DNA of 64,000 nt from Candidatus Kerfeldbacteria bacterium (GCA_043799405.1 JAZDNT010000001.1:25752-89751), one strand, 5' to 3'. Shown: positions 2,481 to 64,000, counted from the stretch's first letter. Notes: generated from the letters alone by a model not told the origin. Program-made: numbers and translations.

Positions 2481-3224
2481 ATGGAAACCTCGCCTATCGA
2501 AAACAAGGTCTTAAGTGATATCAGGAGCAAACGTATTGCCATGCGTTCGCGGAGATCGATCGTTCGTAGAAACGCGATGTTCGGAGTCGCACTTGGTGCC
2601 TTTGCCGTACTCCTTCTCCTGTTCGGCAGCTTCGTCGCGTACTCATTGCACAGGACGGGGATTCTCTACCTTCCTGCGTGTGGTACGAAGGCGCTGTCGT
2701 ACATGCTGCACCCCTTCTCGTGGTTCAACGGCGTTTTGTTTGCGATGTTCAACCTGCTCGGGATCGCCTTTGCCGTGTTCCTCGGGAGAAAGACCGCTAT
2801 ATACCGCGCACCGCTCATATACGTGCTTTTCGCGACCGCGGTTGTCGTGATCGGTGGCGGGTTCCTCATTTTTCTCACACCCCTGAACCGCGTTGTAGGC
2901 TCGATCGCGAATAAGCATCAGATTCCGATCATTGCGCCGCTATTTCAAAAAGCAACGAGCACCATCGAAACACATACGACACCGGGTCTCGTCCGGAATG
3001 TTCAAAGCGGCAGCTTCGAACTCGTAACGTTCTCGAAAAAGGTCGTCGAAGTTCGAACGACACCGTTAACGACGTTCCTTCATGGGTTCGTACCGAAAAA
3101 CAATGATGTTGTCATCGTTGTCGGTACAACCAAGGACGGTGTTATTGAAGCTGACGTTATCCATGAATACCCTGGTAAGCTAACGCCCGAGGAAATCTCC
3201 GAACTTACACAGGTTCAACAGTAG
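2481..3224 (+). CDS. membrane protein downstream of the ECF sigma (possible anti-sigma)
   Basis: ATG at 2481 lies 8 nt after the sigma stop. There are several TM helices after a short cytoplasmic N-terminus. The call rests on position only. Confidence 0.4.
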   Translation: METSPIENKVLSDIRSKRIAMRSRRSIVRRNAMFGVALGAFAVLLLLFGSFVAYSLHRTGILYLPACGTKALSYMLHPFSWFNGVLFAMFNLLGIAFAVFLGRKTAIYRAPLIYVLFATAVVVIGGGFLIFLTPLNRVVGSIANKHQIPIIAPLFQKATSTIETHTTPGLVRNVQSGSFELVTFSKKVVEVRTTPLTTFLHGFVPKNNDVVIVVGTTKDGVIEADVIHEYPGKLTPEEISELTQVQQ

Positions 3225-3386
3225 AATATTCGCCTGATCCCTAGGAGTTCTGCTCTACCCTGAAGTACTGCGCAGATACCGGTGTATTAAAGAGCGAAAG
3301 GAGGTTATGCCTTCTTAGCTCGTTCAACCCGAATGTTTAACCCGGACCCTCGAACCTCTTGGGCGTTTTGGGTATATATCGCGGTA

Positions 3387-3415
3387 TTGTAGGATAAAAA
3401 AACAGGCGGTATGAT
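3387..3415 (+). promoter_or_regulatory. sigma70-like promoter (TTGTAG-17-TATGAT)
   Basis: Hexamers with a 17-nt spacer, ~40 nt upstream of the 3453 ORF. Confidence 0.4.
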
Positions 3416-3452
3416 ATAGCTACATTACTATTCTCTTAAGGTAAATACGTCT

Positions 3453-3581
3453 ATGGCGAAAAAGAGGGTCAAACCCGTGTACCGTAGCGCGGTAAGCGGA
3501 CGGTTCGTATCAAAGGGTTACCTAAAAGGTCACCCGACGAAGACCGTCACCGAGCATGTCAAAAAGGGAAAGAAGAAGTGA
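3453..3581 (+). CDS. 42-aa basic protein (MAKKRVKPVYRSAVSGRFVSKGYLKGHPTKTVTEHVKKGKKK)
   Basis: Below the ORF-track cutoff. The YRSAxSGRFVSKxYxKxHPxxTV pattern resembles a recurrent small bacterial protein, recalled from memory. Its stop overlaps the next start (GTGA). Confidence 0.5.
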   Translation: MAKKRVKPVYRSAVSGRFVSKGYLKGHPTKTVTEHVKKGKKK

Positions 3582-3886
3582 AGGGTAAGCGGTTTCTCTA
3601 TCTCGCGCTCTCGACGTTCCTCGGGATCATTTTGAGTTACGGTATCCACGCAGTCGTCGAACTCATGTACCTCAATTGGGCGGAAAAAACGAACCATCTG
3701 CTAACGTGGACGATGCACTTCGGCGTCGGTGCGTGTGCGCTTTCACCGTACGTACAGTATGGATTATTTATTGCTGGCGTAGTTGGAGGTTTTTTAATCG
3801 GCCGCGTGTGGTGGCGGATCGTCTACGTTGAGCATCGGCACTGGATGCGAAAGGAGGATCGCGAAACCAGGCCGAGAGACGTATAG
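3578..3886 (+). CDS. small membrane protein (3 TM)
   Basis: GTG start overlapping the upstream stop; hydrophobic helices; no family recognised. Confidence 0.5.
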   Translation: MKGKRFLYLALSTFLGIILSYGIHAVVELMYLNWAEKTNHLLTWTMHFGVGACALSPYVQYGLFIAGVVGGFLIGRVWWRIVYVEHRHWMRKEDRETRPRDV

Positions 3887-3919
3887 CGTGTCTCCCGACC
3901 CGGCGTTGGCGTTCTCGAA

Positions 3920-4219
3920 CTAGACGGGCGCGAGCGATTCGATACCCGGAAGGACCTTCTCCTCGAACCGTCGTCGGTTCTCCGGAAACTCCTCTGTGAG
4001 ACTGATCGCGACTTCGCAGCCACCCGCGTCCCCACTCCGCTCGAATGAGCTCAGGAACCGTTCGTCCACTGTGGACATCGAGATCCCGTAGCCGATCATG
4101 TTGCGGAGCTCGCGGACCCGTCTGGTCGCTTTGGGCTTGAAGCGGATCTTCAGCGTCCCCTTCTTGGCGGTCGCCTCGTCGAGCACTGCCTTGAACGGTG
4201 CATCCCCCTTGTCACCCAC
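3920..4219 (-). CDS. hypothetical protein
   Basis: GTG start preceded by AAGGAGGTG with an 8-nt spacer on the minus strand; no family recognised. Confidence 0.55.
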   Translation of the reverse strand: MGDKGDAPFKAVLDEATAKKGTLKIRFKPKATRRVRELRNMIGYGISMSTVDERFLSSFERSGDAGGCEVAISLTEEFPENRRRFEEKVLPGIESLAPV

Positions 4220-4328
4220 TTCTTCTTCACCTCCTTAGAATCCCGGTACAACTGGTTGGAACCTATCGTATCTAACATGCACCGTCAAGCGCTACAGCTT
4301 TGTTATTGAATTTTGATATACTTTACGT

Positions 4329-4868
4329 ATGACATCGGTAACCGCACTCCTCGGGGATATAACAACGCAGCAGGTTGAGGCGATCGTGAACGCCGCGAAC
4401 GAGTCGTTGCTCGGTGGAGGTGGCGTCGACGGCGCTATTCACGCTGCAGCTGGTCCCGTTCTTCTCGAAGAATGCAGGAAGCTCGGCGGATGTAAGACCG
4501 GCGAGGCGAAGATCACGAACGCTTACCGTCTTCTGGCTGATTACATCATCCATACCGTTGGTCCGATATACTCGGTGAAGAAGGAGAAGGTGCCTGAATT
4601 CCTCGCACAGTGTTACCGGAGCTGTCTTGAGGTCGCACAATCACACCTCATTCGAACGATAGCATTCCCCTCGATCTCAACGGGCGCCTACGGGTACCCC
4701 ATTGAAGAGGCGGCGCCGATCGCCGTCGCAACGGTGAGTGCTTGGATCGCGGAGCATCCGGATACCCTCGATGAGGTGCGGTTCGTCCTTTTTAACGATG
4801 AAGACTTGAAGATATATTCAGCGGTTCTACACGAAAAAACGGAAAAGACGGTCAATGGCGTATCGTAA
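4329..4868 (+). CDS. macro-domain protein (O-acetyl-ADP-ribose deacetylase, YmdB-like)
   Basis: GDITTQQVEAIVNAAN..LLGGGGVDGAIHAAAG and FPSISTGAYGYP. Confidence 0.9.
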   Translation: MTSVTALLGDITTQQVEAIVNAANESLLGGGGVDGAIHAAAGPVLLEECRKLGGCKTGEAKITNAYRLLADYIIHTVGPIYSVKKEKVPEFLAQCYRSCLEVAQSHLIRTIAFPSISTGAYGYPIEEAAPIAVATVSAWIAEHPDTLDEVRFVLFNDEDLKIYSAVLHEKTEKTVNGVS

Positions 4869-8621: not shown

Positions 8622-9086
8622 ATGCGCGGAAAGCAAGCACCAAAACGCGAGATAGCACCTGATTCAAGGCACTCATCGACGCTGATCGCAAAGTTCATCA
8701 ACCTCATCATGCAGCGTGGAAAGAAGTCTGTTGCGCAGGCAATCGTCTACGGCGCGTTCGATATTATACGAGAGAAGAGCAAGCAGGATCCGCTCTCGAT
8801 CTTCGATGCAGCGATGAAGAACGTTGCGCCGATACTCGAGGTGAAATCAAAGCGTGTCGGCGGTGCGAATTACCAGGTTCCGATCGAGGTTCGCGGAGAG
8901 CGACGGATCGGTCTCGCAATGCGCTGGATCATCGGCGCAGCTATGAACAAGAAGGGCAAGCCCATGAAGGTAAAGCTCGCGGCCGAGCTTATGGAAGCGA
9001 GCATGAACCAGGGCGACGCGGTCAAGAAGCGCGCCGACGTGCACCGTATGGCAGAGGCGAATCGCGCCTTCGCCCATTTTGCTTAG
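8622..9086 (+). CDS. rpsG: 30S ribosomal protein S7
   Basis: GKKS.A..IVY.A, VGGANYQVPIEV, ANRAFAHFA C-terminus. Confidence 0.97.
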   Translation: MRGKQAPKREIAPDSRHSSTLIAKFINLIMQRGKKSVAQAIVYGAFDIIREKSKQDPLSIFDAAMKNVAPILEVKSKRVGGANYQVPIEVRGERRIGLAMRWIIGAAMNKKGKPMKVKLAAELMEASMNQGDAVKKRADVHRMAEANRAFAHFA

Positions 9087-12182: not shown

Positions 12183-13367
12183 ATGGCAGGAAAATTCGAA
12201 CGCACGAAACCGCACGTGAACGTCGGTACCATCGGTCACGTTGACCACGGAAAGACCACGCTCACTGCAGCGATACTGAAGACGCTCGCCGCGAAAGGTT
12301 TCGCAGCCCAGACAAAGGGCGTCGATGACATTGACAACGCCCCTGAAGAGAAGGCGCGCGGCATTACCATTGCGACCGCGCACGTCGAGTACGAGTCTGA
12401 AAAACGTCACTACGCGCACGTCGACTGTCCCGGTCACGCTGACTATGTGAAGAACATGATCACCGGCGCCGCACAGATGGACGGCGCGATCCTCGTCGTT
12501 TCGGCGGTCGATGGTCCGATGCCGCAGACCCGCGAGCACATCCTGCTCGCAAAGCAGGTTGGCGTTCCGTACATCGTCGTCTACCTCAACAAGGTGGACA
12601 TGGTCGACGATAAGGAACTCATCGATCTCGTCGAGGTCGAGATTCGTGATCTCCTCAAGAAGTACGAGTTCCCCGGCGATAAGACCCCGATCATCCGCGG
12701 TTCGGCGCTGAAAGCCCTCGAAGGAGACGCAGAAGCGGCTAATTCGATCATGGAGCTCGTAAAGACGCTCGATGAGTACATTCCCGAACCGAAGCGTGAA
12801 ACCGACAAGCCGTTCCTCATGCCGATCGAGGACATCTTCTCGATCGAGGGACGCGGTACGGTCGTTACTGGCCGTATCGAGCGCGGAATGATAAAGCTCA
12901 ACGAAGAGGTTGAGATCGTTGGCATACGCGATACGTCGAAGACCGTCGTTACTGGTATAGAAATGTTCAATAAACAGCTGGACGAGGGTCGTGCTGGCGA
13001 CAACGCCGGTTTGCTCTTGCGCGGAACCAAAAAGGACGACGTTGAGCGCGGACAGGTGCTCGCAAAACCGGGGAGCATAACCCCGCACTCCGAGTTCGAT
13101 GCGAACGTCTACGTCCTCACGAAGGAAGAGGGAGGTCGTCACACCCCGTTCTTCAAAGGCTACAAACCGCAGTTCTACGTCCGGACCACGGATGTTACTG
13201 GTGAGGTCGAACTGCCTGCCGGTACCGAGATGGTCATGCCTGGTGATACCGTTGACCTCAAGATAAAGCTCATCGCTCCGGTCGCGCTCGAAGAGAAGTT
13301 CCGATTCGCCATCCGTGAAGGCGGACATACCGTCGGCGCGGGAGTGGTAACGAAGATTAACAAGTAA
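12183..13367 (+). CDS. tuf: elongation factor Tu
   Basis: [22 protein letters not shown]. Confidence 0.98.
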
Positions 13368-21742: not shown

Positions 21743-22270
21743 ATGTCTAGACTACCACAACGTCGTGCCGGGGGAAGACGCAGGGGAGACAATGCCCCGC
21801 GCGAAGAGAAAGAGTTTCAGCAGAAGGTGATCGATATTCGTCGCGTTGCCCGTGTCGTCGCAGGCGGTAAGCGCATGCGGTTCCGTGCATTGATCGCCAT
21901 CGGGGACGGGAAGGGCAGGATTGGAATCGGTATCGGGAAAGGGCTCGATGTAACGAGCGCTATAAGCAAGGGCGCAACCATCGCCCGTAAGAAGCTCGTG
22001 TCGATTCCGATCGTCGAAGAAACGATTCCCCATACTATCCGGGTGAAGTCGGGTGCAGCACTTGTTCTTCTGAAACCTGCACCAAAGGGAAGCGGTGTTA
22101 TCGCCGGCGGTCCGGTCAGGTCGCTCATGGAACTTGCTGGCGTTCGGAACGTCATTGCGAAGATGTTGGGCTCTTCGAACAAGATCAACAATGTGTACGC
22201 CGTCATGGATGCGTTCGGATTGCTTCAAACCCGTGAACAGCTTAAACGCAAGCTGCGAGGAGGAACGTAA
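21743..22270 (+). CDS. rpsE: 30S ribosomal protein S5
   Basis: V.DIRRVARVVAGGKRMRFRALIAIGDG.GR.G.G.GK. Confidence 0.96.
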   Translation: MSRLPQRRAGGRRRGDNAPREEKEFQQKVIDIRRVARVVAGGKRMRFRALIAIGDGKGRIGIGIGKGLDVTSAISKGATIARKKLVSIPIVEETIPHTIRVKSGAALVLLKPAPKGSGVIAGGPVRSLMELAGVRNVIAKMLGSSNKINNVYAVMDAFGLLQTREQLKRKLRGGT

Positions 22271-54241: not shown

Positions 54242-56427
54242 AACAAGAGGTACAGCACGACAACCGCTTCGATGCGTTACAGGAGGTTCCGCCTCAGAAC
54301 GTTCTCGATCTGCGAAAATCAGTACACGAGGTCGAGGCTCCGGAACCGAGAAGCGTTACCCTTGAACGTTTTTGGAAAGAAAAGAGTAAGCGCATACGTC
54401 AACCATCGCCACCGAGGCGGCAACGACCAGCACTCCAAGACGTATGGGGCGGCTTTACGATGCGTACAAGAGCCGTTGTTCTTAGGATCAGGATCGGGTC
54501 GTTCCCGATCGTTGCGGCTGTACTGCTCATCGTATACGCCGCTATAGCGGGGATCGGCCAGGTCATTTCGACGAAGAATAGGATCATTGATGTTGCAAAA
54601 ACGGGATATGAAGCACTGAAGGTCGCGGGAGCTAAGGCAGAATCGCTCGACCTTGCTTCTGCACGGACTGCGTTCGAGAGCGCTTCGCAGAGTTTTGCGA
54701 CCGCTGAATCTTCTTTTACCGACATCGGTCCGGTACTGCGGTTGGTTCTGTCAGCGGTTCCCGGTACCGGCTCAAAATTGCGGAGCGGGAAATACCTCGT
54801 GACCGCCGCACGTCACCTCGCTGATGCCGGAGCCCGGTTTACGACGCTCGCAGCTCCGCTCACTACGAAAGGCGAGGGATTTTCGAGCGTCGCTGGTTTT
54901 CTTAAAAATATCGATGCGAATCGGCAGACGCTCGATGCGATCGTTACCGAGGTCACCGTTGCTTCTGATGAACTCGCGAATGTCAGATCCCAGGATCTTC
55001 CGGTAGAGTACCGCGAACCCGTAGAAAAAATGCAGTCGGCAATCCCCGGGCTCCGGGTGAGCATTTCTAACCTTGCGGACGGGATGACCGTCATGTCGCA
55101 GATGTTCGGCGTCAATAAGCCCTCCGAGTATCTCTATATATTCCAGAACTCGAACGAACTTCGGGCGACAGGCGGTTTTGCAGGAAGCTTTGCACTCATC
55201 CGCATTGACGGAGGGATCATAAAGCTCCTCGACGCGCCGAGCCGCGGAACGCTTGATGTCGATACTAACCTTACAAATACCGTAACGCCTCCTCGTCCGC
55301 TGCAGGTGATAACGCCGAGCTGGTACTTCCGTGACGCGAACTGGTACCCCGACTTTCCGACATCAGCAGAGCAGTTCATGCGGTTCTACCGGCAGGCGCG
55401 AGGGTTCACACCGGATGGTATCGTCGCATTCACGCCTGCGCTCATTGAACAGATCCTTGCCGTGACCGGTCCGATAGAGCTTCCGGAGTACAGCGTCACG
55501 ATCGACGAGACAAATTTCGTCACGACCGCGCAGGAGCAGATCGAGCAGAAGTACGACCTCCGCACGAACGATCCGAAGCAGTTCATCGTCGATCTTATTC
55601 CTACGCTCGCTGACAGGCTTTCGAAACTCGACGTTACGACCTATCCGGCGCTCCTTGCAACGCTTGCGCGAGCGACCTCGATCGGCGATCTGCAAGTCTA
55701 TAGCTCTGACGATTCGGTACAGGAAAAGATCGTTCAACTCGGCTGGTCAGGAACGATGCCGCAGCCTGACGGTGATTTTTTCGAGCTTGTGAATACGAAT
55801 ATCGGCGGCGGCAAGACCGACGGCGTCATGCGTGACGAAGTGAGCGACCATGTCGTGATCGCGACTGATGGTACGGTCACCGTTGAGGTTACGGTGACTC
55901 GTACGCACAAAGGAACGATCGGCGATCCGTTCATGGGAAACAGGAACCGCACGTACCATCGTTTCTACGTCCCGCGCGGCTCGCGTCTCGTATCAACGAC
56001 AGGATTCACAGAGCTTTCTCGTGACGTCTATCAAACGTTACCAGAAGGTTCTTCGCCGGATGAACTTCTTTCGGATACTGAGGGGCGCGTCATCATTGAC
56101 GAACGTTCCGGGACCCGCATTAACAACGAGTTCGGAAAGACCGTGTTCGGGAACTGGACAGAGCTCGATCCGGGGAATTCCGTAATATTCTCGGTGATCT
56201 ATACGCTTCCGTTCACATTCACCGGTAACCTAGAGCGCTACGACATCACTATCGGCAAACAGGCCGGTAAAACGCGCCAATCCTTCGAACTGAACGTCAC
56301 AGTACCGGATACTACGAAGGTCGTCTGGAATTCCGTTGACGGAAGCAAGAAAAAGACCAGTTCCTTTTCGTACTTCACAGATCTTGCATCATCTCAGAAG
56401 GTGTCTCTCGTTCTGCAGAAGAAGTAA
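54238..56427 (+). CDS. DUF4012-like large extracytoplasmic protein
   Basis: N-terminal TM; YLYIFQNSNELRATGGFAGSFALIRIDGG motif, recalled family resemblance. Confidence 0.7.
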   Translation: MKQEVQHDNRFDALQEVPPQNVLDLRKSVHEVEAPEPRSVTLERFWKEKSKRIRQPSPPRRQRPALQDVWGGFTMRTRAVVLRIRIGSFPIVAAVLLIVYAAIAGIGQVISTKNRIIDVAKTGYEALKVAGAKAESLDLASARTAFESASQSFATAESSFTDIGPVLRLVLSAVPGTGSKLRSGKYLVTAARHLADAGARFTTLAAPLTTKGEGFSSVAGFLKNIDANRQTLDAIVTEVTVASDELANVRSQDLPVEYREPVEKMQSAIPGLRVSISNLADGMTVMSQMFGVNKPSEYLYIFQNSNELRATGGFAGSFALIRIDGGIIKLLDAPSRGTLDVDTNLTNTVTPPRPLQVITPSWYFRDANWYPDFPTSAEQFMRFYRQARGFTPDGIVAFTPALIEQILAVTGPIELPEYSVTIDETNFVTTAQEQIEQKYDLRTNDPKQFIVDLIPTLADRLSKLDVTTYPALLATLARATSIGDLQVYSSDDSVQEKIVQLGWSGTMPQPDGDFFELVNTNIGGGKTDGVMRDEVSDHVVIATDGTVTVEVTVTRTHKGTIGDPFMGNRNRTYHRFYVPRGSRLVSTTGFTELSRDVYQTLPEGSSPDELLSDTEGRVIIDERSGTRINNEFGKTVFGNWTELDPGNSVIFSVIYTLPFTFTGNLERYDITIGKQAGKTRQSFELNVTVPDTTKVVWNSVDGSKKKTSSFSYFTDLASSQKVSLVLQKK

Positions 56428-56466
56428 TAAACACCCATTTTTCTTTGAGTATTTTTGAATAGAGAA

Positions 56467-56500
56467 ATGCCCATTTTTCGGGCATGTGGATAACTTTTTT
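56467..56500 (+). terminator. hairpin ATGCCC-atttttc-GGGCAT followed by a T-rich tract
   Basis: Lies 40 nt after the DUF4012 stop. Confidence 0.45.
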
Positions 56501-56544
56501 GCATTAGTTAGGGTAAAAATCGAAGTCATAGCGCCAATAGGCTA

Positions 56545-56573
56545 TTGACAGGGGAAGATAGGGGGTGTATCTT
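56545..56573 (+). promoter_or_regulatory. sigma70-like promoter (TTGACA-17-TATCTT) pointing into the island
   Basis: Perfect -35 box, 17-nt spacer. Confidence 0.45.
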
Positions 56574-57056
56574 TTCCTGTTCTACTGGGACATCGCGCAC
56601 ATTCAATTCCATTACAACTTGAGGAGAGAGCCCCGCCTACGCTAAAGCTTCGGCGGGTGACCGGATCAGGCCTGAGAAACCTGTTCTACCACAACCATGA
56701 TTTATCCCAAAGATGGGGTGGATCGTGCTTAAGAGCTCTTGCCTCATAAGTACGATCCACCTCGCTTTCGTTTTCGGAAATATGGAGGAGGAGGGCGATC
56801 GGCAGCGGTCATACTGAGCGGTGAAAACTGCAAAGCACGACCAAGCCGTTTCGGTCTGCTGGGCTTCGGCCCAAAAGCGGACATTCCTCACCTCCAGAAT
56901 TCCGGAAATGAGAAGATCGTCCGGAGCGTTCGCGCTGGTATGCGGTATCTATCGTATGTCGCGCGAGCGGTCCGGGAGAAGTTGTTCCGGCTCGTTCTAC
57001 ACCAAGCACACGCTTGGCCCACGTCTCGGGGGATTGAGACACCGCAGGAGCATGAG

Positions 57057-57278
57057 ATGAATTTGTTTTTCTGTCTCATCATCGATCTCGGGTGTCTGGT
57101 GATTCCCGCGTGGTTCAAGCCGATGCGTCGCGAGATCAATCGGCAGATGGATGAGCGCGATGCGTTCGCGCTTGCCGCGAGTCACGCTGTTCGTGATGAC
57201 GTCGAGAGGGCGATGGCAGATGCTCTGCCGACGTTCCGTCATCATCACGATCAGATGGTGGCGCGGTACGGCTTGTAG
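57057..57278 (+). CDS. island ORF A: 73-aa protein with N-terminal TM
   Basis: GGAG sits 6 nt before ATG 57057. The upstream part of the 56739 track ORF looks non-coding. Confidence 0.5.
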   Translation: MNLFFCLIIDLGCLVIPAWFKPMRREINRQMDERDAFALAASHAVRDDVERAMADALPTFRHHHDQMVARYGL

Positions 57279-57473
57279 TTCGTTCAATCCCTGTCCGCAA
57301 GGACAGGTCGGGAGGAAGATGACCGGATAACGGTCACGCTCCACGGGGAATGCCTAGGCACAGAAGTTTCCCCACAGTTCCGAGCCAATTCGATTGTAGC
57401 CCTTCGACTAAGCTCAGGGTCATCCTGAGCGGGGCGCTCAGAATGAGTTGGTTCAGAACTGTAATTTAAAAAC

Positions 57474-57549
57474 AATTGACATTTGACACTTAATATTTGA
57501 CGTTTAACTCTGCCGAATTTCTGTCAAATGTCACAAGTTAAAAGTCAAC
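57474..57549. repeat. second inverted heptad array (TTGAC heptads / GTCAA heptads)
   Basis: aattgac atttgac acttaat atttgac gtttaac, then a 13-nt gap, then tgtcaaa tgtcaca agttaaa agtcaac. 57496-57509 can pair with 57536-57549 (12 of 14). Confidence 0.75.
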
Positions 57550-57609
57550 TGTTCCGCGAAGCGGATAGCTCGTTACAACACGTTCAGGTCATAGGATGGT
57601 GGGAGTTCG

Positions 57610-57912
57610 GTGTGCATGAAAAACATGCGTGACGATGTCCCACCATCTGTTGCTTCCCGTTCCATTCCGCTGAAGGTGATGCGGAATATGGAGATCGTCA
57701 TGAACGAGATTTATACCGCGGCGAAGCTGATTGCTTTTGTAGCAGCGTGCTTCCACATCGGTAACGCATCTATGGTTGTCGGTTGGAAGGACGACAAGTG
57801 GATTGCGATCTGCGTTGGGACGCTGAGTGTCATCGCGTCTGCGCCGATCGCGTTCTACGCGGTCTTCCACTTCGCTCGGGCAATCATCAGTCTGACCATC
57901 TTCGCTAAGTAG
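57610..57912 (+). CDS. island ORF B: ~100-aa 2-TM protein
   Basis: GGTGGGAG upstream; start is GTG 57610 or ATG 57616. Confidence 0.55.
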   Translation: MCMKNMRDDVPPSVASRSIPLKVMRNMEIVMNEIYTAAKLIAFVAACFHIGNASMVVGWKDDKWIAICVGTLSVIASAPIAFYAVFHFARAIISLTIFAK

Positions 57913-58148
57913 GCGATCAACTCTGAATGAGGAGGTCCGCTCATGACCTGGACGTAAGTAGCTTGTTTAAACCGCACCCACAAGGTGCGTCAGGCGGAGA
58001 TGACCGTTCGTACACGGCGCTCCATCGGGGAAGAGCCTGGAACTGAATCTTCCCCTTCGCTCGAGCCCCGAAAGCGTTCGGGATTCAAGCGAGGTAGATC
58101 GTTCCACATCGAAGTTCATCCCAACATCCGACGGAGGAGGGAACACGC

Positions 58149-58439
58149 ATGAAGGGCATCGGAGCTCTGTTGATTGTCCTCGCCGTGATCTATCTGATCG
58201 GGTGGGGCGGTTATAACTGGATCGATGGGAACATGAACCCGTTCGGATCGGTAAGGACGAGCGAATCGTTCCCGTTCCTGCAGGTGATGTTCCTGGGGGT
58301 GATCTGGCTGATCGCTGGCGCGTTCGGGATCATCTACGTCCTTCTGCACGCAGTCGTGCAAAACGATGTAGGGTTCCTCCTCTGGTCCTTTATCGGCGGT
58401 GTCGCGTGCGTGGTTACGGCCATGTTGCGGAACCGCTGA
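58149..58439 (+). CDS. island ORF C: 96-aa 3-TM protein
   Basis: GGAGGAGGG sits 7 nt before the ATG. Confidence 0.6.
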   Translation: MKGIGALLIVLAVIYLIGWGGYNWIDGNMNPFGSVRTSESFPFLQVMFLGVIWLIAGAFGIIYVLLHAVVQNDVGFLLWSFIGGVACVVTAMLRNR

Positions 58440-58716
58440 CGCTAAGCTCGTTCTCGGGATACTCGTAAGAACATCGCGAGATCCCCTGGACCGAGTCGAT
58501 GAACATAGTGTTCACCGATTCAGTCCAGAACGCTCATTACAACTTGAAGGTCAGTATCTCCCCATTGATACCGCAGAAGGTTCGTCACGCACGTGGCGTG
58601 TCTCCTGCGGTATCAATCAGCTTGTTGCCAGTACTCTGCACGGCACGACTACGAACGTGGTCCATGCCTAATACCCATGACGGGTTTTGCAGATACTGCA
58701 ACGAGGAGGAGCTCAG

Positions 58717-59419
58717 ATGAAGCGTCTCACGTTGGTCACGATCGCGCTGCTCGCGCTCGTCCTGTCCTTCGCCGGCATCGCGCTGGCAGAGAACACGAAG
58801 TTCACCGCGAATTCGACCACAACGGGTTCGATCGACACGGGTCCGTTCACGGACGCCGTGAAGGCCGAGCTCGCCAAGGGTGTGAACGTCCACGTGACGC
58901 CGGTCGGACTCGGTGGGGGTCAACCGCCGGCTCGACGCGACGGACGCCAAGCTCGATCGCATGGAGGCCAACGCGGACGATCGCGGGGGACAGCAGTTCC
59001 GCGACCACGAGTCGCAGTCAGCTGCTCTCGGCCGCATCGAGAGCAAACTCGACAAGGGCAACGGCAACGTCGTCGGGTGGCTCGCACTCATCCTCGCTGG
59101 TATCGCATTGCTGGTCGCGCTTCTCAACCGGGGACGCGACGGGCGTGATGGTCGCAACAGCGACATCTGCCGGGACGAGGTCGGCGAGATGATCGCCGAC
59201 GCAATCATCGCCCACGAGGAGGGCGACGGGCACAAGACCAATGCTGGTCCGAAGGGCGACCCCGGACCCGCCGGCAAGGACGGACGCGACGGCTGCTGCC
59301 ACGAGCACGGTAAGTGCACCTGTGGTCACGCGACCAACGTCATCACCGTCAACGGCGGCACGGTGAACGTCTACAACGGCGCCACGACCGTGACGCCCTC
59401 GGCCACGGCCCAGGCCTGA
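58717..59419 (+). pseudogene. island ORF D: signal-peptide protein joined by a +1 frame change at GGTGGGGGT (58912-58920) to a coiled-coil/TM/collagen-like (G-x-y) protein
   Basis: Frame 1 reads MKRLTLVTIALLALVLSFAGIALA|ENT...VTPVGLGG. GC3-rich coding then continues only in frame 2 (VNRRLDATDAKLDRME...GPKGDPGPAGKDGRDG...). Frame 1 beyond 58920 is Arg-rich junk. Confidence 0.55.
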
Positions 59420-59623
59420 TCTTCAACCTCCGCCTACGCGCTCATAGCGCTTCGGCGGACTAGTACAGGGGAGGTGACATGGTTCTATCCCATGCGCCTC
59501 CCCTCCGATTCCGAATCCACCATACGATTGGCGGATTGAGAATAGGAATGCTCGTCGTAAAACATCGTCAACGGGTCGAAAAGACCCACTAGCAGCGGTC
59601 GTATCCTTCAGGGAGGACGGAAC

Positions 59624-59887
59624 ATGCAGTTCTGCTGCATCCGTAATGGACGGCTTCAGCGAACCAGTGGTCGATTTGGCGGCGACCAGAAGTTCGAGGT
59701 TCGGTTGTCGGACGCTCGCTGCGTCATCGCAGCAAAGCGCCATGAGGCCGACATCGTCGAGGTGTTTCTCAACGGCGTCGACAAGCCCGTGGTCGTGAAG
59801 GCCAAGCCCTTCACGGGTCCCCGGACGATCCTCGTCTGTGTCGTGCCGTCCCGCGCGACGGCACTTCTCACGCGTGCGAGGGCCTGA
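59624..59887 (+). CDS. island ORF E: 87-aa soluble protein
   Basis: GGGAGGA sits 6 nt before the ATG; no family recognised. Confidence 0.5.
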   Translation: MQFCCIRNGRLQRTSGRFGGDQKFEVRLSDARCVIAAKRHEADIVEVFLNGVDKPVVVKAKPFTGPRTILVCVVPSRATALLTRARA

Positions 59888-60212
59888 CCGATGGTTGGTG
59901 CCAGCACGACCACCCCGGATTGGGCCACGAGGGACCGATCTGGTTCCTCGACGAGCTCAAGCTCGAGGCAGCACGCCAGACCTGCTAGTAGCTCGTTCGT
60001 CGGGCAGGCAACAGCAGAGCACCGCTGTTGACCTGCCCATCGAACTTGAGTACAGTAATCCGTTACCGTGTTCAAGTTCGATAGCTCATTACAATCCATC
60101 ACCCTGTTTCCAGCGAGGGATCGAGTCCGTTGAAACAATGCGGATTCAGTTCCTCGCTGGACATCCTAAACCCCGGATCCTCAGGCAATGAGCCAAGAGG
60201 GAAGGAGCGAAC

Positions 60213-60695
60213 ATGAACAGGACGTTGGTCGCGTGGTCGTTGATTGGGCTTGCGATCGTGCTGCTTGGTCTCGTGGTTTGTTTGACCGCAGATCGCTATG
60301 TGCGGGATCGCAACGCACAGCACAACGTCGCGATCGCGGAACACGCGTTCGTAAAGTACCTTTCGGCATGGGAATACGGACGCTACCCCCACATGGGGTA
60401 TGAGATTGAGACCTACATCGATACGCCAAACCACCTGCTCCTCAATCCCTTCACTGGGAAGATGGAGCACATCGTGTTCTGGGATGGGCCCGGCACGAAA
60501 ACCGTACCTGGTCAGACATGCTACACAGTGCTTTGGCGTGCGGATTCGACAGGACACTGTATTGTCCCGCTCGAAGGATTCGCAGCCGTGGTCTGGGTTG
60601 CGGGAAACGACGACTATCGGCTCCACCTGACATACGTCGGGGAGCAGCTGTACCCACCGATACGGCAGGTTCTCGGCAGGTCGTCGACGAGGTGA
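60213..60695 (+). CDS. island ORF F: 160-aa N-terminally anchored extracytoplasmic protein
   Basis: GGAAGGAG sits 5 nt before the ATG. There is a single N-terminal TM and a Cys pair (CYTVLWRADSTGHC) near the C-terminal third. Confidence 0.6.
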   Translation: MNRTLVAWSLIGLAIVLLGLVVCLTADRYVRDRNAQHNVAIAEHAFVKYLSAWEYGRYPHMGYEIETYIDTPNHLLLNPFTGKMEHIVFWDGPGTKTVPGQTCYTVLWRADSTGHCIVPLEGFAAVVWVAGNDDYRLHLTYVGEQLYPPIRQVLGRSSTR

Positions 60696-60834
60696 CCGAC
60701 AGGATGATGGACAATGCGGGGAGGAAGTGGCAGAGTATCGCTAACTTCCTTCCCGCACCTGTTCCGAGCTGATGTTGAAAAACACCCGTTCAGAATAGGA
60801 AGCTCGTTACAAGAAGCGGTTTATATGACGGCAG

Positions 60835-61170
60835 GTGCGGCATCGCTTTTCAGCGGTGCCACATCTGTCGTCATTCCCCATGCCGCAGAAAGGTTACACC
60901 GTGCGGTGGTATCACTACATCCTCGTCGACGCCGTCCTGCTTGCAGTCATTCTCGGGACGGCGAAGATTCTCGGGTTCTGTAACACCCGGGAGCAGATGT
61001 GGACTCTCATCAGCGCCTCCTTGCTCGGGATTCTTGTCTCGTACCTCGTAACGATTGCGACATCGCGTTCGAGAAAGAGACGTCGTCCGCTCCTTCGGAT
61101 CGAACCGTGGGTTGATAAGCACGGCAATGTCCAGGAGCCGGAACGGCGCATGAACCCGGGCAGGTGGTAG
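60835..61170 (+). CDS. island ORF G: 2-TM protein (start uncertain: GTG 60835 or ATG 60880)
   Basis: Hydrophobic helices and a basic tail; no clear SD. Confidence 0.45.
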   Translation: MRHRFSAVPHLSSFPMPQKGYTVRWYHYILVDAVLLAVILGTAKILGFCNTREQMWTLISASLLGILVSYLVTIATSRSRKRRRPLLRIEPWVDKHGNVQEPERRMNPGRW

Positions 61171-61184
61171 CGCGAGGAGGACGT

Positions 61185-61361
61185 ATGAACCGGTTGTATG
61201 TGTTCATCGCGGTGATTGTGGCTATCGGCCTCATACGGTTCATTGCCGCGTGGTGGCCGAGGGAGCCGTGTCGCCGGCTGCCGGCTCGTGAACTCCGGTT
61301 GGAGTTCATGAAGGTGTCAGGGATCGGGTACATTCCCGGTTCCATCAAGCCGCAAAAGTAG
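61185..61361 (+). CDS. island ORF H: 58-aa single-TM protein
   Basis: GAGGAGGA sits 3 nt before ATG 61185. Confidence 0.5.
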   Translation: MNRLYVFIAVIVAIGLIRFIAAWWPREPCRRLPARELRLEFMKVSGIGYIPGSIKPQK

Positions 61362-61608
61362 GGGCCGCTGTATTGAAGTGGGTTGCGACGTTCGACACAA
61401 GAGCGTTGCAACCCCTTCACCCCCGAGTCTATTGGGAATACAATAGGTTCAGGAGTGGAGAGAGTAGTACCAGTTCATTACAACCCGAACTTGAGCAACT
61501 CATGGCGGTGCTGTAGAGGCTAACCTTGGCACCTGCAGCGCCGTCATGAGTACTTGATGGCAATAGAGCCCCTACAGGGATGGACAGACCTCAACAAGGA
61601 GGTGACTG

Positions 61609-61923
61609 ATGTTGGACCTCAGGAATTGGGCGCAGTTGCCGTTGTACATCTGCGACATCGTCGCGTGGCTTGGACTCGTGGGTACGATCTTTGTGGTCGT
61701 GATCGAGTTCAACACACGGCGCGATCGGTGGATGAACGATTGGGTGTCAGATTGGCTCGGCTGGCGTGAGGTAATCACGATCATGATGCTGATCGTTGTG
61801 ACTGTCCGGCTCTCGGACAAGCCGCACGACTGGCTCATGCTCGCTGCTGTTCCGGTCTTTCTGATTGGTACCTACATCCTGATCCCTCTGCTCGGGAGGA
61901 AGCAGCGGATCTATAGTTGTTGA
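61609..61923 (+). CDS. island ORF I: 104-aa 3-TM protein
   Basis: AAGGAGGTG sits 4 nt before the ATG. Confidence 0.6.
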   Translation: MLDLRNWAQLPLYICDIVAWLGLVGTIFVVVIEFNTRRDRWMNDWVSDWLGWREVITIMMLIVVTVRLSDKPHDWLMLAAVPVFLIGTYILIPLLGRKQRIYSC

Positions 61924-61999
61924 GCTATCCCCCGCAAGTCCGCCGAAGTGCCCTGCCGTGAGGCGATCACGGTAACCCCCCCGCGTAAGGACTACGCGC

Positions 62000-62449
62000 A
62001 TGAATGGAATCGAAGTTCACGAGTTTCCCCCCGATGATTCTGTCGGGGCGTACGTGCCGATGACACCAGACGAGGTCGCTCAGTGCTTTGCTGAGCTCAA
62101 CGCCTACTGTCTGGCGAGGGTTTCGACACCCAGGCGTCACCGCGGTGCCGGAAGGCCCCCGGTCACGCTGATGCTCGGGCCCGAGGATCTCGAGGATGGG
62201 TTCAGGTTCAGGAAGATCCCCGGCGAGAAGTGTTCGTCGCAGGAGTCCGCCAACGGCTGCGTCTCGGGCGAGTGCCCGAGGTGTGGGTCATGTCTCAACA
62301 AGGCAGGTATCTGCTCGATCTGCGAGGGTGACTACACCGATGGCTTCGGCCAAGGGTTCGTCGCCGCGGCGGTCACTGCCGAGTTCGGCAAGACCACCTC
62401 GGGCGGTGACGTGTTCGTCTTCTCGATGGACCACCCTCGTCTTCGGTAG
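62000..62449 (+). CDS. island ORF J: 149-aa soluble Cys-rich protein (CxxxxCxxCxxC...CxxC)
   Basis: CVSGECPRCGSCLNKAGICSICEG looks like a zinc-ribbon cluster; no family recognised. Confidence 0.55.
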   Translation: MNGIEVHEFPPDDSVGAYVPMTPDEVAQCFAELNAYCLARVSTPRRHRGAGRPPVTLMLGPEDLEDGFRFRKIPGEKCSSQESANGCVSGECPRCGSCLNKAGICSICEGDYTDGFGQGFVAAAVTAEFGKTTSGGDVFVFSMDHPRLR

Positions 62450-62762
62450 CCGCTTAAGTTCGAGCAGAAAAGGGAAGGTCGTGAATGTCAATGGGACAAC
62501 CACCTTGCATTACCGCGACCTTCCCGACCTTTCTTCTGTGACCTCATTCCGCTAAGGAGTGGGACGTAGAACAAAGGTCATTCACAATATAATGGTCTCC
62601 GGCGATCCGGCCGGAACAGATCCACACTCATCATGGCGCATGTGTTGTTCCTGAAAAGGAACAGAAACTCTCTCCTCACGCATGCAACGGTTAAGCGGGG
62701 ATACTGCGTCTGGTCGGATCATCGGGGGTCACGTTCGGCGAGACCACCTCTCCGCTTCGCGG

Positions 62763-62839
62763 TTTCCCCTCCTACCTCCCCGCCGCCAGGCGGCACCCCT
62801 CCTAAACTTAGGAGGGGGAGGGAGCGGTAGGAGGGGAAA
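62763..62839. repeat. perfect nested palindrome (three-way junction) built from CCCCTCCTA / TAGGAGGGG units
   Basis: The outer 14-bp stem pairs 62763-62776 with 62826-62839. The inner hairpins are GCCGCC-a-GGCGGC (62782-62794) and CCCCTCCTAA-ac-TTAGGAGGGG (62796-62817). Confidence 0.85.
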
Positions 62840-62931
62840 TGCCGACAGGCAATGGGGTGGTACACTCACCCTCCTCGCGACGTGAATACCTTTGAAAAAG
62901 GGGAGTTTTATGGTAGGATAGCGAACAGTTC

Positions 62932-64000
62932 ATGTTTGTTATGACAGCATTTTGGCGTAAGCTCTCATCAACGGTCACCGGCGGCGCTATCATCGTATCG
63001 AGCTCATGGTTCATCTCGAAGCTCTTAGGATTTTTACGCGAACGGCTCATCCTGTCCCGCTTCGGCGCTTCCCCTGAGACCGACGCGTATAATGCAGCGT
63101 TCGGCATTCCCGATTTCATCTATGGTACCCTCATTCTCGGTTCGCTCCTTTCGGTGTTCATCCCCGTGTTCATCCATTACCGCGAACAGAAGGGCAACGA
63201 TGAAGCGTTCCGGATTGCGAACTCGATCCTCAACATCATCGTCATAACCTTCCTTGCGTGCGGCGTCGTCCTTTTTGTGTTTGCGCCGCAGCTCATAACG
63301 CTCGTCGCTCCGGGTTTTGATGCGAAGCGAATTGACCTCGCGGTCGAGATGACAAGGATCATCTCGATCAACATCCTGCTGTTCGGAGTGTCGAACGTGC
63401 TCTCGGGCATTCTCAATGCCTCAAAACGGTTCATTGCGTTCTCTATTGCCCCGATACTCTACAACGTCGGCATTGTCGCCGGAATTCTTCTGCTCGTCCC
63501 GACGTACGGCATCCGGGGCGTTGCGGTCGGCGCCGTCATCGGCGCAGTGCTGCACGTACTCGTACAGGTTCCGTCGGTTCTGCGGACGGGTTTCAGATAT
63601 CGCGGTATCATGGACCTTAAGCACAAAGGGGTCCGCGAGATCGGTCGTCTGATCCTTCCCCGAGCGTTCGGCCAGTCCGTGACGCAGATAGCGCAGCTCG
63701 TCAACCTCATCATCGGCTCGACGCTCGTCGTCGGGAGCGTTACGGTGTTCAGGGCCGCGAACAACGTCCAAGACCTTCCCATTACGCTCATCGGTGTCAG
63801 CCTCGCGACCGTCGTTTTCCCGGTGTTCGCGGAGGCGCTCGCGCGCAACGACAGGGCGTGCTTCGTCCAGCACTTTTCGCGCGTCGTCCGGCAGATACTG
63901 TTCATGGTTATTCCTATCTCCGTGCTCTTTCTTATCCTCCGTGCGCAGGCGATCCGCGTCATCTACGGCGCCGGGCAGTTCGACTGGAACGCGACGATCC
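62932..64000 (+). CDS. murJ: lipid II flippase MurJ (3' partial; runs off the window, so absent from the ORF track)
   Basis: Hand translation gives MFVMTAFWRKL...SKLLGFLRERLILSRFGAS.ETDAYNAAF.IPDF.....LGS.LS..FIPVF and ...GIRGVAVGAVIGAVLHVLVQ.P. Confidence 0.85.
   Translation, partial: MFVMTAFWRKLSSTVTGGAIIVSSSWFISKLLGFLRERLILSRFGASPETDAYNAAFGIPDFIYGTLILGSLLSVFIPVFIHYREQKGNDEAFRIANSILNIIVITFLACGVVLFVFAPQLITLVAPGFDAKRIDLAVEMTRIISINILLFGVSNVLSGILNASKRFIAFSIAPILYNVGIVAGILLLVPTYGIRGVAVGAVIGAVLHVLVQVPSVLRTGFRYRGIMDLKHKGVREIGRLILPRAFGQSVTQIAQLVNLIIGSTLVVGSVTVFRAANNVQDLPITLIGVSLATVVFPVFAEALARNDRACFVQHFSRVVRQILFMVIPISVLFLILRAQAIRVIYGAGQFDWNATI

Follow-up and report, generated by a model that had tools for sequence, protein, structure and literature searches.

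A boxA-like element within a repeated, conserved RNA module of the DUF4012-murJ locus in Candidatus Kerfeldbacteria

Nus-factor antitermination and RNA chaperoning are classically devices of ribosomal RNA (rRNA) operons and phages. In rrn operons a boxB hairpin, boxA and boxC follow one another in that order, with two sets per operon and with leader-trailer helices (PMC10250234). The boxA element reads UGCUCUUUAACAA in Escherichia coli rrn and CGCUCUUACACA in lambda nutR (PMC2724277; the lambda form CGCUCUUA was compared as well), and its gamma-proteobacterial consensus is GYTCTTTAANA (PMC5725501). It also acts outside rRNA, at suhB and in CRISPR arrays, and its consensus drifts between phyla (PMC7665894, PMC5725501). 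We present here an RNA module with a boxA-like box that is repeated between a DUF4012-protein gene and murJ in 64,000 nt of DNA from a Candidatus Kerfeldbacteria bacterium (GCA_043799405.1 JAZDNT010000001.1:25752-89751; this whole stretch is the window below, and positions are counted from its first letter). To our knowledge, the Candidate Phyla Radiation (CPR, or Patescibacteria) combines tiny genomes with almost no described gene-regulatory RNA, and Kerfeldbacteria have no cultured representative.

The DUF4012 protein is encoded by a gene ending at 56427, and its relatives are annotated as Candidatus Kerfeldbacteria. Comparison loci were taken as the DNA around homologues of this protein with 46-61% identity. 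The DUF4012-to-murJ locus, called the island in an initial annotation of the window, is present in eight Kerfeldbacteria-like loci, five complete and three cut by contig ends; single relatives are cited by handle (L001, L013 and so on). The module within it has a CCGAG/UUCAG hairpin that in most copies lies 0-4 nt from the box GYUCRUUACAAC; a long variable hairpin comes 11-20 nt later, ahead of a ribosome-binding site and an open reading frame (ORF). The module is an RNA-level, sense-strand, lineage-conserved structure that exposes its box, which is predicted to be mostly unpaired.

The hairpin-box-hairpin module

The initial annotation had listed recurring boxes ahead of the island genes, and each of the listed copies is there. 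With at most one mismatch, AGCTCRTTACAAC has five matches in the window, all on the + strand (57567, 58531, 60083, 60801 and 61472), against 0.08 expected from dinucleotide shuffles, none of 100 of which reached five; the boxes are thus truly enriched. The core GYTCRTTACA has six matches against 0.37 expected, five of them in the island and a stray one at 21949 on the - strand. Box and start codon lie 120, 173, 117, about 66-87 and 124 nt apart, and 438 nt for the first copy (56611-56618), in agreement with the annotation. That first copy is present as sequence but amounts to half a box, the element conserved in relatives being GCGCACATTAC(A) at 56594-56605. Three copies described as degenerate (57277, 58445 and 59990) are real and belong to a second class, AGYTCGTTC. 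A copy assigned to 3317, outside the island, is probably a chance match: the sequence around it shows no unusual degree of folding (z = -1.4), and the covariance model introduced below has no hit there. Further copies beyond those annotated were found at 59547 (weak), 56990 and 57961 (Table 1). Among the relatives, the box nGYTCRTTACAWn is limited to the orthologous locus and to the + strand, with six copies in L013, two or three in L001, two in L015 and one in L018.

Directly 5' of the box lies a hairpin that the initial annotation had not recorded; its stem has a CCGAG/UUCAG core with one C.A mismatch and one G.U pair. In an alignment of 13 copies from six genomes (alignment A3), 93.5% of cells are paired and 8 of the 12 pairs show compensatory double changes, a result as good being reached by none of 500 column shuffles; when the partner columns are slid as a control, pairing falls to 26-43%. 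Of the 13 copies, 11 retain the G.U pair; the C.A mismatch becomes U-A in the variant copy of the alignment, and the loop ranges from ~12 to ~65 nt. Covariance model R1 was built from this alignment and recovered its seed copies, as expected, together with non-seed copies in the window (59505-59564 and 57548-57582) and in L013, L017 and L020. All R1 matches with E < 0.1 fall on the + strand inside DUF4012-murJ loci, and nothing comparable was found outside these loci in ~367 kb of window, flanks and other Patescibacteria loci. The orthologue of the weak module at 59505-59564, L013 15691-15752, is also weak (17.7 bits, E = 0.065), and that of the module at 61417-61487, L013 17036-17093, carries compensatory stem changes.

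On the 3' side, the annotated strong hairpins were borne out as a long stem 11-20 nt behind each full box, with arms of ~19-26 nt. In orthologous modules the post-box hairpins are conserved in place and length but not in sequence, much or all of which is replaced; L013, for instance, retains the base of the hairpin at 61498-61551, and its distal part is another sequence that still forms a hairpin. Relative to shuffles, box-containing spacers fold at z = -7.1 to -10.8 and all island spacers at -4.6 to -10.8, save 57913-58148 at -1.7; most coding controls lie between about -2 and +1.5, and one segment of an island ORF reaches -4.7. Of 42 spacers taken from five islands, 33 have a predicted fold that is more stable on the sense than on the antisense strand (Wilcoxon p = 8e-6), a bias to which positive GC skew contributes. 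The mean predicted unpaired probability is 0.62 for the box and ~0.34 for whole spacers, and the 3' half of the box (UACAAC) is predicted to be unpaired at 0.9 or above in most copies; the box at 60083 is single-stranded in the minimum-energy fold. If the box paired with CGAGC, the 5' arm of the adjoining hairpin, in the manner of a switch, 5 bp could form; no convincing correlation across copies was seen.

In the window, the class 2 box, AGYTCGTTC, starts at a stop codon or no more than ~5 nt behind it, with a hairpin immediately 3'; one class 2 box in L013 starts 15 nt after the stop codon. The same arrangement of stop codon, box and hairpin recurs in L001, L013, L015, L017 and L019. Taken alone, the short class 2 pattern is modestly enriched (7 matches against 1.78 expected). 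The box at 57277 is orthologous to L013 13152, L019 8578 and an L017 copy, and the element at 57961 and the module at 57277-57360 are paralogous. Lastly, the hairpin at 58049-58106, which precedes a degenerate box, is orthologous to L013 13803-13860, where the box is intact.

Table 1. Positions of the RNA elements and promoter of the DUF4012-murJ locus in the window
Feature	Position	Strand	Basis
sigma-70 promoter of the locus, TTGACA-N17-TATCTT	56545..56573	+	consensus scan, conservation
Conserved structured 5' leader RNA, ~480 nt	56581..57056	+	8-genome alignment, RNAalifold
Leader, box-like GCGCACATTC..ATTACAAC	56594-56618
Leader, block GAGGAGAGAG	56621-56630
Leader, box GCTCGTTCTA	56990-56999
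Leader copies in relatives	L001 5417-6000; L013 12326-12854; L015 12317-12776; L019 7520-8075; L020 6812-7277; also L017, L018
Class 2 box AGTTCGTTCAATCC, overlapping the stop codon of the first ORF, then hairpin CTGTCC..GGACAG	57277..57290	+
CCGAG/UUCAG hairpin with long inserted loop; 95-nt AT-rich insertion before its box	57376..57468	+
Box AGCTCGTTACAAC (class 1), then hairpin 57595-57647	57567..57579	+	motif search, folding
Post-box hairpin	57595..57647	+	folding
Class 2 variant AGCTTGTTTAAACC after mini-ORF MTWT*, then hairpin GCACC..GGTGC	57961..57974	+
Degenerate box AGTTCATCCCAAC, after hairpin 58049-58106, 23 nt before ORF at 58149	58113..58125	+
Class 2 box AGCTCGTTCTC, hairpin immediately behind	58445..58455	+
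Module, CCGAG/UUCAG hairpin and box CGCTCATTACAAC (58531-58543)	58485..58546	+	R1 56.6 bits, seed
Post-box hairpin, 26-nt arms	58564..58617	+	folding
Weak module, hairpin and variant box TGCTCGTCGTAAAAC (59547-59561), upstream of ORF 59624	59505..59564	+	R1 19.6 bits, E = 0.02
Class 2 box AGCTCGTTCGTC, then hairpin 60002-60038; orthologous to L001 7354	59990..60001	+
Module, CUUGAG/UUCAAG hairpin variant (U-A for C.A) and box AGCTCATTACAAT (60083-60095)	60040..60098	+	R1 49.3 bits, seed
Post-box hairpin, 21-nt arms	60109..60161	+	folding
Module, CCGAG/UUCAG hairpin and box AGCTCGTTACAAG (60801-60813)	60758..60816	+	R1 55.5 bits, seed
Post-box hairpin	60825..60874	+	folding
Module, CCGAG/UUCAG hairpin, 14-nt insert, box AGTTCATTACAAC (61472-61484)	61417..61487	+	R1 50.6 bits, seed
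Post-box hairpin, base CAUGGCGG/CGCCGUCAUG	61498..61551	+	folding
Conserved structured trailer RNA, 5' of the murJ promoter	62560..62760	+	five complete islands

Several smaller features accompany the modules. The hairpin at 57376-57468 recurs with the same loop insert in L017 and L019. This insert, of ~58 nt (57398-57455, GTAGCCCTTCGAYWAnCTCAGGGTCATCCTGAGCGGGGCGCTCAGAATGAG), is near-identical in the window, L017 (~13270-13325) and L019 (~8680-8735), where the flanking protein is only ~50% identical, and is far better conserved than its surroundings. An AT-rich palindromic insert, TTGACATTTGACA ... TGTCAAATGTCA (57470-57553), parts the hairpin from the box at 57567; a palindrome closely resembling it occurs in the L019 trailer region (~12540-12610). 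The insert has the appearance of an operator or of a small mobile palindrome. A mini-ORF of four codons, ATG ACN TGG ACG TAA (MTWT*), stands at 57931-57958 behind a strong AGGAGGT ribosome-binding site. It is kept in L013 (13709-13736) behind a different gene, again followed by a post-stop box, and a similar mini-ORF (MPS*, 3288-3312) precedes the box copy at 3317.

Leader, trailer and organization of the locus

The modules are bracketed by two further structured RNAs. The leader has 113 predicted pairs, 40 of them with compensatory changes (RNAalifold, eight genomes), and folds at z = -6.1. It measures 460-590 nt across eight Kerfeldbacteria-like genomes, tolerates lineage-specific hairpin insertions at fixed points, and contains the invariant blocks GGAGAGAG, CTGAGAA, CATGGAGG and CACCTCCAG. 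Its box-like element lies ~15-35 nt after the probable transcription start, and its block GAGGAGAGAG is invariant in six of eight leaders. The trailer has 45 predicted pairs, 22 of them compensatory, and presents the invariant element CUCUCUCCUCACG (62668-62680) in an internal loop. The invariant block CUCUCUCCUC (62668-62677) of the trailer and the leader block GAGGAGAGAG are perfectly complementary 10-mers, ~6 kb apart, and both are found in all five complete islands. Variant leader blocks occur in L017 and L018 (CGGGAGAGAG and GGGGAGAGAG), whose trailers lie beyond the contig ends; complementary trailer counterparts would read CUCUCUCCCG or CUCUCUCCCC. A metagenome scan with a conserved 21-mer of the leader gave one match (L012), taken as chance from its AT-rich, unrelated flanks, and the 21-mer had no match in viral sequences. 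One hairpin, CCGC..GCGGTTTCCCCTCC-loop-GGAGGGGA(AA), is found at 62755-62845 in the window, at L001 5625-5700, in the L017 leader and at L013 18300-18350; its placement in leader or trailer depending on the genome suggests a small mobile hairpin repeat.

Known RNA families do not account for these elements. At the gathering threshold, Rfam 15 identified only RNase P RNA and one tRNA in the whole window, and with E values up to 5 it gave only chance microRNA-type matches in 56400-63000. Self-cleaving ribozymes, transfer-messenger RNA and group II introns had no Rfam or ARAGORN matches. Repetitive extragenic palindromes or bacterial interspersed mosaic elements (REP/BIME) and palindromes of the miniature inverted-repeat transposable element type were set aside, as the hairpin sequences differ from copy to copy and the remaining 57 kb of the window contain no module. 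The ends of IS200/IS605-type elements, with a TTAC cleavage site upstream of a hairpin, were likewise rejected, since no two of the hairpins are alike and the neighborhood of the locus showed no transposase gene. A role of the box as an anti-Shine-Dalgarno sequence was rejected as well: GGAGC is present in only 3 of ~10 ribosome-binding sites, with complementarity of just 4-5 nt. A search for the hairpin arm plus box in viral sequences gave one match (L021), which lies in phage coding sequence, scores 12 bits with R1 and was taken as chance. Nothing on the module, leader or trailer was found in the literature searched on Kerfeldbacteria and on structured RNAs of Patescibacteria. Module, leader and trailer are absent from Rfam 15, and the modules represent a family of structured RNA elements with clear covariation that is unreported in the searchable literature.

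The term island proved misleading, since the locus occupies the same syntenic chromosomal site across the Kerfeldbacteria-like relatives and is not a recent insertion; it appears to be vertically inherited across the clade. L013, L015, L019 and L020 share a gene order of glycosyltransferases, DUF4012, 5.5-7.4 kb of small same-strand ORFs and MurJ, the small ORFs being almost without Pfam matches; in L001, L017 and L018 the 5' part of the locus is seen and the contig then ends. Upstream of the locus, a single sigma-70 promoter of the arrangement TTGAC-N17-TATnnT is kept in all eight loci, and a separate murJ promoter, conserved by inspection of the sequences, follows the trailer. A consensus scan of the island found four sigma-70-like sites against 3.0 in shuffles, none of them at a box, and no intrinsic terminator was found on the + strand of the island spacers. 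Both results are consistent with a single transcript, and we infer one operon transcript that runs from the promoter at 56545 through the ~480-nt leader and ~10 small ORFs to the trailer upstream of murJ.

Gene content between leader and trailer is highly variable by blastp between islands: about three protein families form a backbone common to the window, L013 and L015, interrupted by ORFs without a detectable homologue. At curated cut-offs the island proteins had no match in Pfam, PHROGs, NCBIfam or PADLOC, where a few weak matches were listed, and an exact-sequence look-up of three window proteins returned no record. The gene for a collagen-like membrane protein (58717-59419) changes frame at a GGGGG run near 58915 and is intact in L013 (253 aa); the ORF at 59624 (59624-59988) continues in the -1 frame to a stop codon at 59986-59988 and is intact in L001 (139 aa). 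These apparent frameshifts could be assembly errors, pseudogenes or programmed shifts. In four relatives (L001, L014, L017 and L018) the contig ends at or inside the locus, which hints at repeats or strain-level heterogeneity disrupting assembly. L014 also carries a diversity-generating retroelement-like pair (a bAvd-family gene and a reverse transcriptase, 3183-4727) between the genes for RNase H and a sugar transferase, a short way upstream of the syntenic block; at that place the window lacks any such insertion.

A tentative boxA reading and its alternatives

Tentatively, we read the boxes as nut-like or rrn-like loading sites for NusB and S10, in spacers that are perhaps also processed. 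We favor NusB-S10 loading because the core is boxA-like, the layout joins the rrn order (hairpin, then box) to the lambda order (box, spacer, hairpin), and boxA is known to act outside rRNA. The core GYUCRUUACA and boxA share GYUC, UUA and CA, including the Y degeneracy, and GYUCRUUACAA fits 8 of the 10 defined boxA positions, including GYUC, UUA and the final A, of a consensus that is gamma-proteobacterial and may not be that of the host. The context is also of the boxA type: a predicted single-stranded, sense-strand-only element beside a hairpin in untranslated RNA. In lambda nutR, the boxA5 and boxA16 mutations are said to inactivate boxA. The invariant box positions (GYUC and UUA, and for the lambda oligonucleotides the invariant G and C) coincide with those altered in the boxA5 and boxA16 oligonucleotides (PMC2724277), and also with those of the suhB boxA double mutation C4T/T6C, which abolished SuhB association (PMC5725501).

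On this boxA reading, NusB-S10 (NusE) would attach to the box of the nascent transcript, and RNA polymerase would become part of a complex that resists termination and chaperones RNA, as in rRNA operons and at lambda nut sites. Re-loading at each untranslated spacer, and also immediately behind stop codons as the ribosome departs, would keep transcription going across ~6 kb of hairpin-rich RNA with sparse translation and perhaps aid its folding. The long flanking hairpins may double as processing or stability elements for individual cistrons.

A number of observations weigh against NusB-S10 loading. The box has R instead of U at position 5, C instead of A at position 9, and one A fewer than boxA (UUACA against UUAACA). 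A match of 8 of 12 ungapped boxA positions, with offsets allowed, has a chance probability of ~1e-2 and is suggestive only. In the most distant relatives (L019 and L020) the box drifts to GCTCGTTCAAT, GTTCGATACAAC and GCTCGTCGATAAT, and one CCGAG hairpin of L017 has no box behind it. Neither the rrn nor the lambda boxB elements include an equivalent of the CCGAG/UUCAG hairpin. No rRNA gene is present in the window, nor did universal probes find one in any fetched locus, which leaves the box a candidate boxA of this lineage, and none of nine ORFs checked outside the island matched NusB or Rho families. The spacers are G-rich and tightly folded and would thus be poor Rho substrates, which makes a need for protection against Rho uncertain. 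One Nus loading event normally suffices, and we know of no operon with six or more boxA elements. The single-transcript status of the locus, like Nus binding and antitermination, is something we infer.

Several alternatives were weighed. The initial annotation had offered a regulator site or an RNA processing signal among its options, and in general terms an RNA-level or regulatory signal holds up, the element being sense-strand-specific, predicted single-stranded and placed between covarying hairpins. Processing in the strict sense is somewhat unlikely as the main function. Here an endoribonuclease, acting in the box (RNase Y/E-like) or in the ~20-bp stems (RNase III), would cut the polycistronic RNA between two hairpins and release monocistronic mRNAs, each with a 3' CCGAG hairpin and a 5' post-box hairpin blocking exonucleases; the box would direct the cleavage or mark where a protecting protein sits. 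The predicted exposure of a single-stranded box between two stable hairpins fits such a role, and the post-box arms of ~19-26 nt match the size class of RNase III substrates (~20 bp or more), known from the early-region sites of phage T7, cleavage here being a prediction. The hairpins are without U-tracts and hence are not terminators, and orthologous post-box hairpins that keep length and position while their sequence is replaced fit a role in structural protection. However, a conserved sequence of 10-13 nt exceeds the known preferences of RNase E and RNase Y, the box is not of the RN|WUU consensus type, and class 2 boxes right after stop codons are left unexplained. Processing and NusB-S10 loading are compatible rather than exclusive. 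We consider it distinctly unlikely that the box is the site of a locus-specific RNA-binding regulator or partner RNA (such as the purine-rich leader block), unrelated to Nus factors, that controls the translation or stability of all cistrons. In its favor, the neighboring hairpin preserves a C.A and G.U geometry such as protein recognition sites typically show, and within 64 kb only this locus has the module. The products of the locus include soluble orphan proteins, one of which, Cys-rich and encoded at 62000-62449, might bind nucleic acid, and RNAalifold pairs GCUCGUUC of the leader with GAGAGAGC. That predicted box/leader pairing, however, includes no pair changed on both sides, no island protein matches any RNA-binding family or is common to all box-bearing islands by blastp, and the start codon follows the box at anything from 66 to 173 nt, without a fixed relation to the ribosome-binding site.

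The remaining two readings place the box at the DNA level. It is very improbable that the box marks a recombination or cassette junction, by integron attC-like exchange or by homologous recombination between repeated leaders. Such a junction would agree with the variable gene content, in which shared backbone families are interrupted by unique ORFs, with ORFs that all lie on one strand behind one promoter, and with the contig ends in four relatives. Moreover, the box and hairpin at 57567-57646 are orthologous to L013 13841-13930 but precede a different ORF, and neighboring units are permuted; this permutation may, as a conjecture without proof, reflect recombination between repeated leaders. 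On the other hand, inspection of the arms revealed no R''/R' inverted core sites (RYYYAAC/GTTRRRY) and no inverted partner of the box after the hairpin, and gene calls for L013 and L015 show no integrase or recombinase up to 10 kb from the locus in either direction. The chromosomal site is fixed, orthologous spacers show ordinary compensatory evolution, the sense-strand folding bias points to an RNA rather than a DNA element, and with flanks at 46-60% identity the divergence of small proteins may just be too great for blastp. Hardly credible, finally, is the box as the -10 element of a per-gene promoter for an alternative or extracytoplasmic function (ECF) sigma factor or an element-specific polymerase. 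A box stands upstream of each ORF, one copy reads TACAAT, and the annotated ECF-type sigma gene (1910-2473) is confirmed in the window. As the initial annotation had noted, no conserved -35 element accompanies the boxes; its promoter option is not supported, since the upstream position is taken by the covarying RNA hairpin and no box carries a sigma-70 site. C, T, G and A all occur as the last base of TACAAN, the would-be -10 hexamer, and class 2 boxes sit at stop codons. Nor does the ECF sigma factor suit as the suggested reader of the box: CGT is absent from three of five copies (CATT), and GAAC does not occur 16-17 nt upstream. A candidate autoregulated ECF promoter, GAAC-N16-CGTC (1833-1856), lies ~55 nt upstream of the sigma gene itself, and nothing similar precedes the boxes.

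If NusB-S10 loading is correct, Nus-factor antitermination and RNA chaperoning would be re-used many times within a protein-coding operon, and the box would offer a first view of the boxA consensus in a CPR lineage; if it fails, the module is a new recognition motif for a protein or an RNase. Leader and trailer bracket hypervariable small envelope-associated proteins beside cell-wall genes (glycosyltransferases, DUF4012 and MurJ). A broader interpretation, which we regard as unlikely, treats the locus as an RNA-organized expression platform, with one promoter, a leader, a distant complementary trailer and fast-changing small membrane-protein genes behind identical-type modules, in which the modules would serve both as an expression signal (Nus-type or for a new factor) and as homology for the gain, loss and permutation of units. 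At the level of RNA, such a platform would correspond to a cassette array that follows the logic of an rRNA operon.

Comparison with known systems

Integron arrays (attC) resemble the locus in having one promoter, small same-strand orphan ORFs, structured elements between ORFs and variable content; the locus differs in lacking R/L core sites and intI and in its fixed chromosomal position and sense-strand folding bias. The T7 early region shares long imperfect intercistronic hairpins without U-tracts, which serve as RNase III sites or stabilizers, and has no counterpart of the conserved single-stranded box or the covarying CCGAG hairpin.

Among boxA systems, lambda nutL and nutR present a box, a spacer of ~10-20 nt and a hairpin, and nutR CGCUCUUACACA may be set against CGCUCRUUACAAC here. 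Unlike in lambda, the downstream hairpins are long (arms of ~19-26 nt) and without a conserved loop, no N-like protein was identified, and the locus is chromosomal and apparently vertically inherited rather than phage-borne. In the suhB 5' untranslated region and in CRISPR leaders, a boxA-type element protects or regulates a non-ribosomal transcript, as proposed here, and the consensus drifts between phyla; these are single copies near the transcript 5' end, whereas the box is repeated at every intercistronic spacer of the Kerfeldbacteria locus. The rrn antitermination elements share with it a hairpin directly 5' of a single-stranded GCUC.UUA.CA, more than one set per operon, a long and highly structured untranslated RNA, and complementary conserved blocks in leader and trailer. 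The transcript of the DUF4012-murJ locus, in contrast to that of rrn, encodes ~10 small proteins and contains at least six boxes plus post-stop variants; its box has a purine at position 5 and one A fewer, and its upstream hairpin has a CCGAG/UUCAG core of its own.

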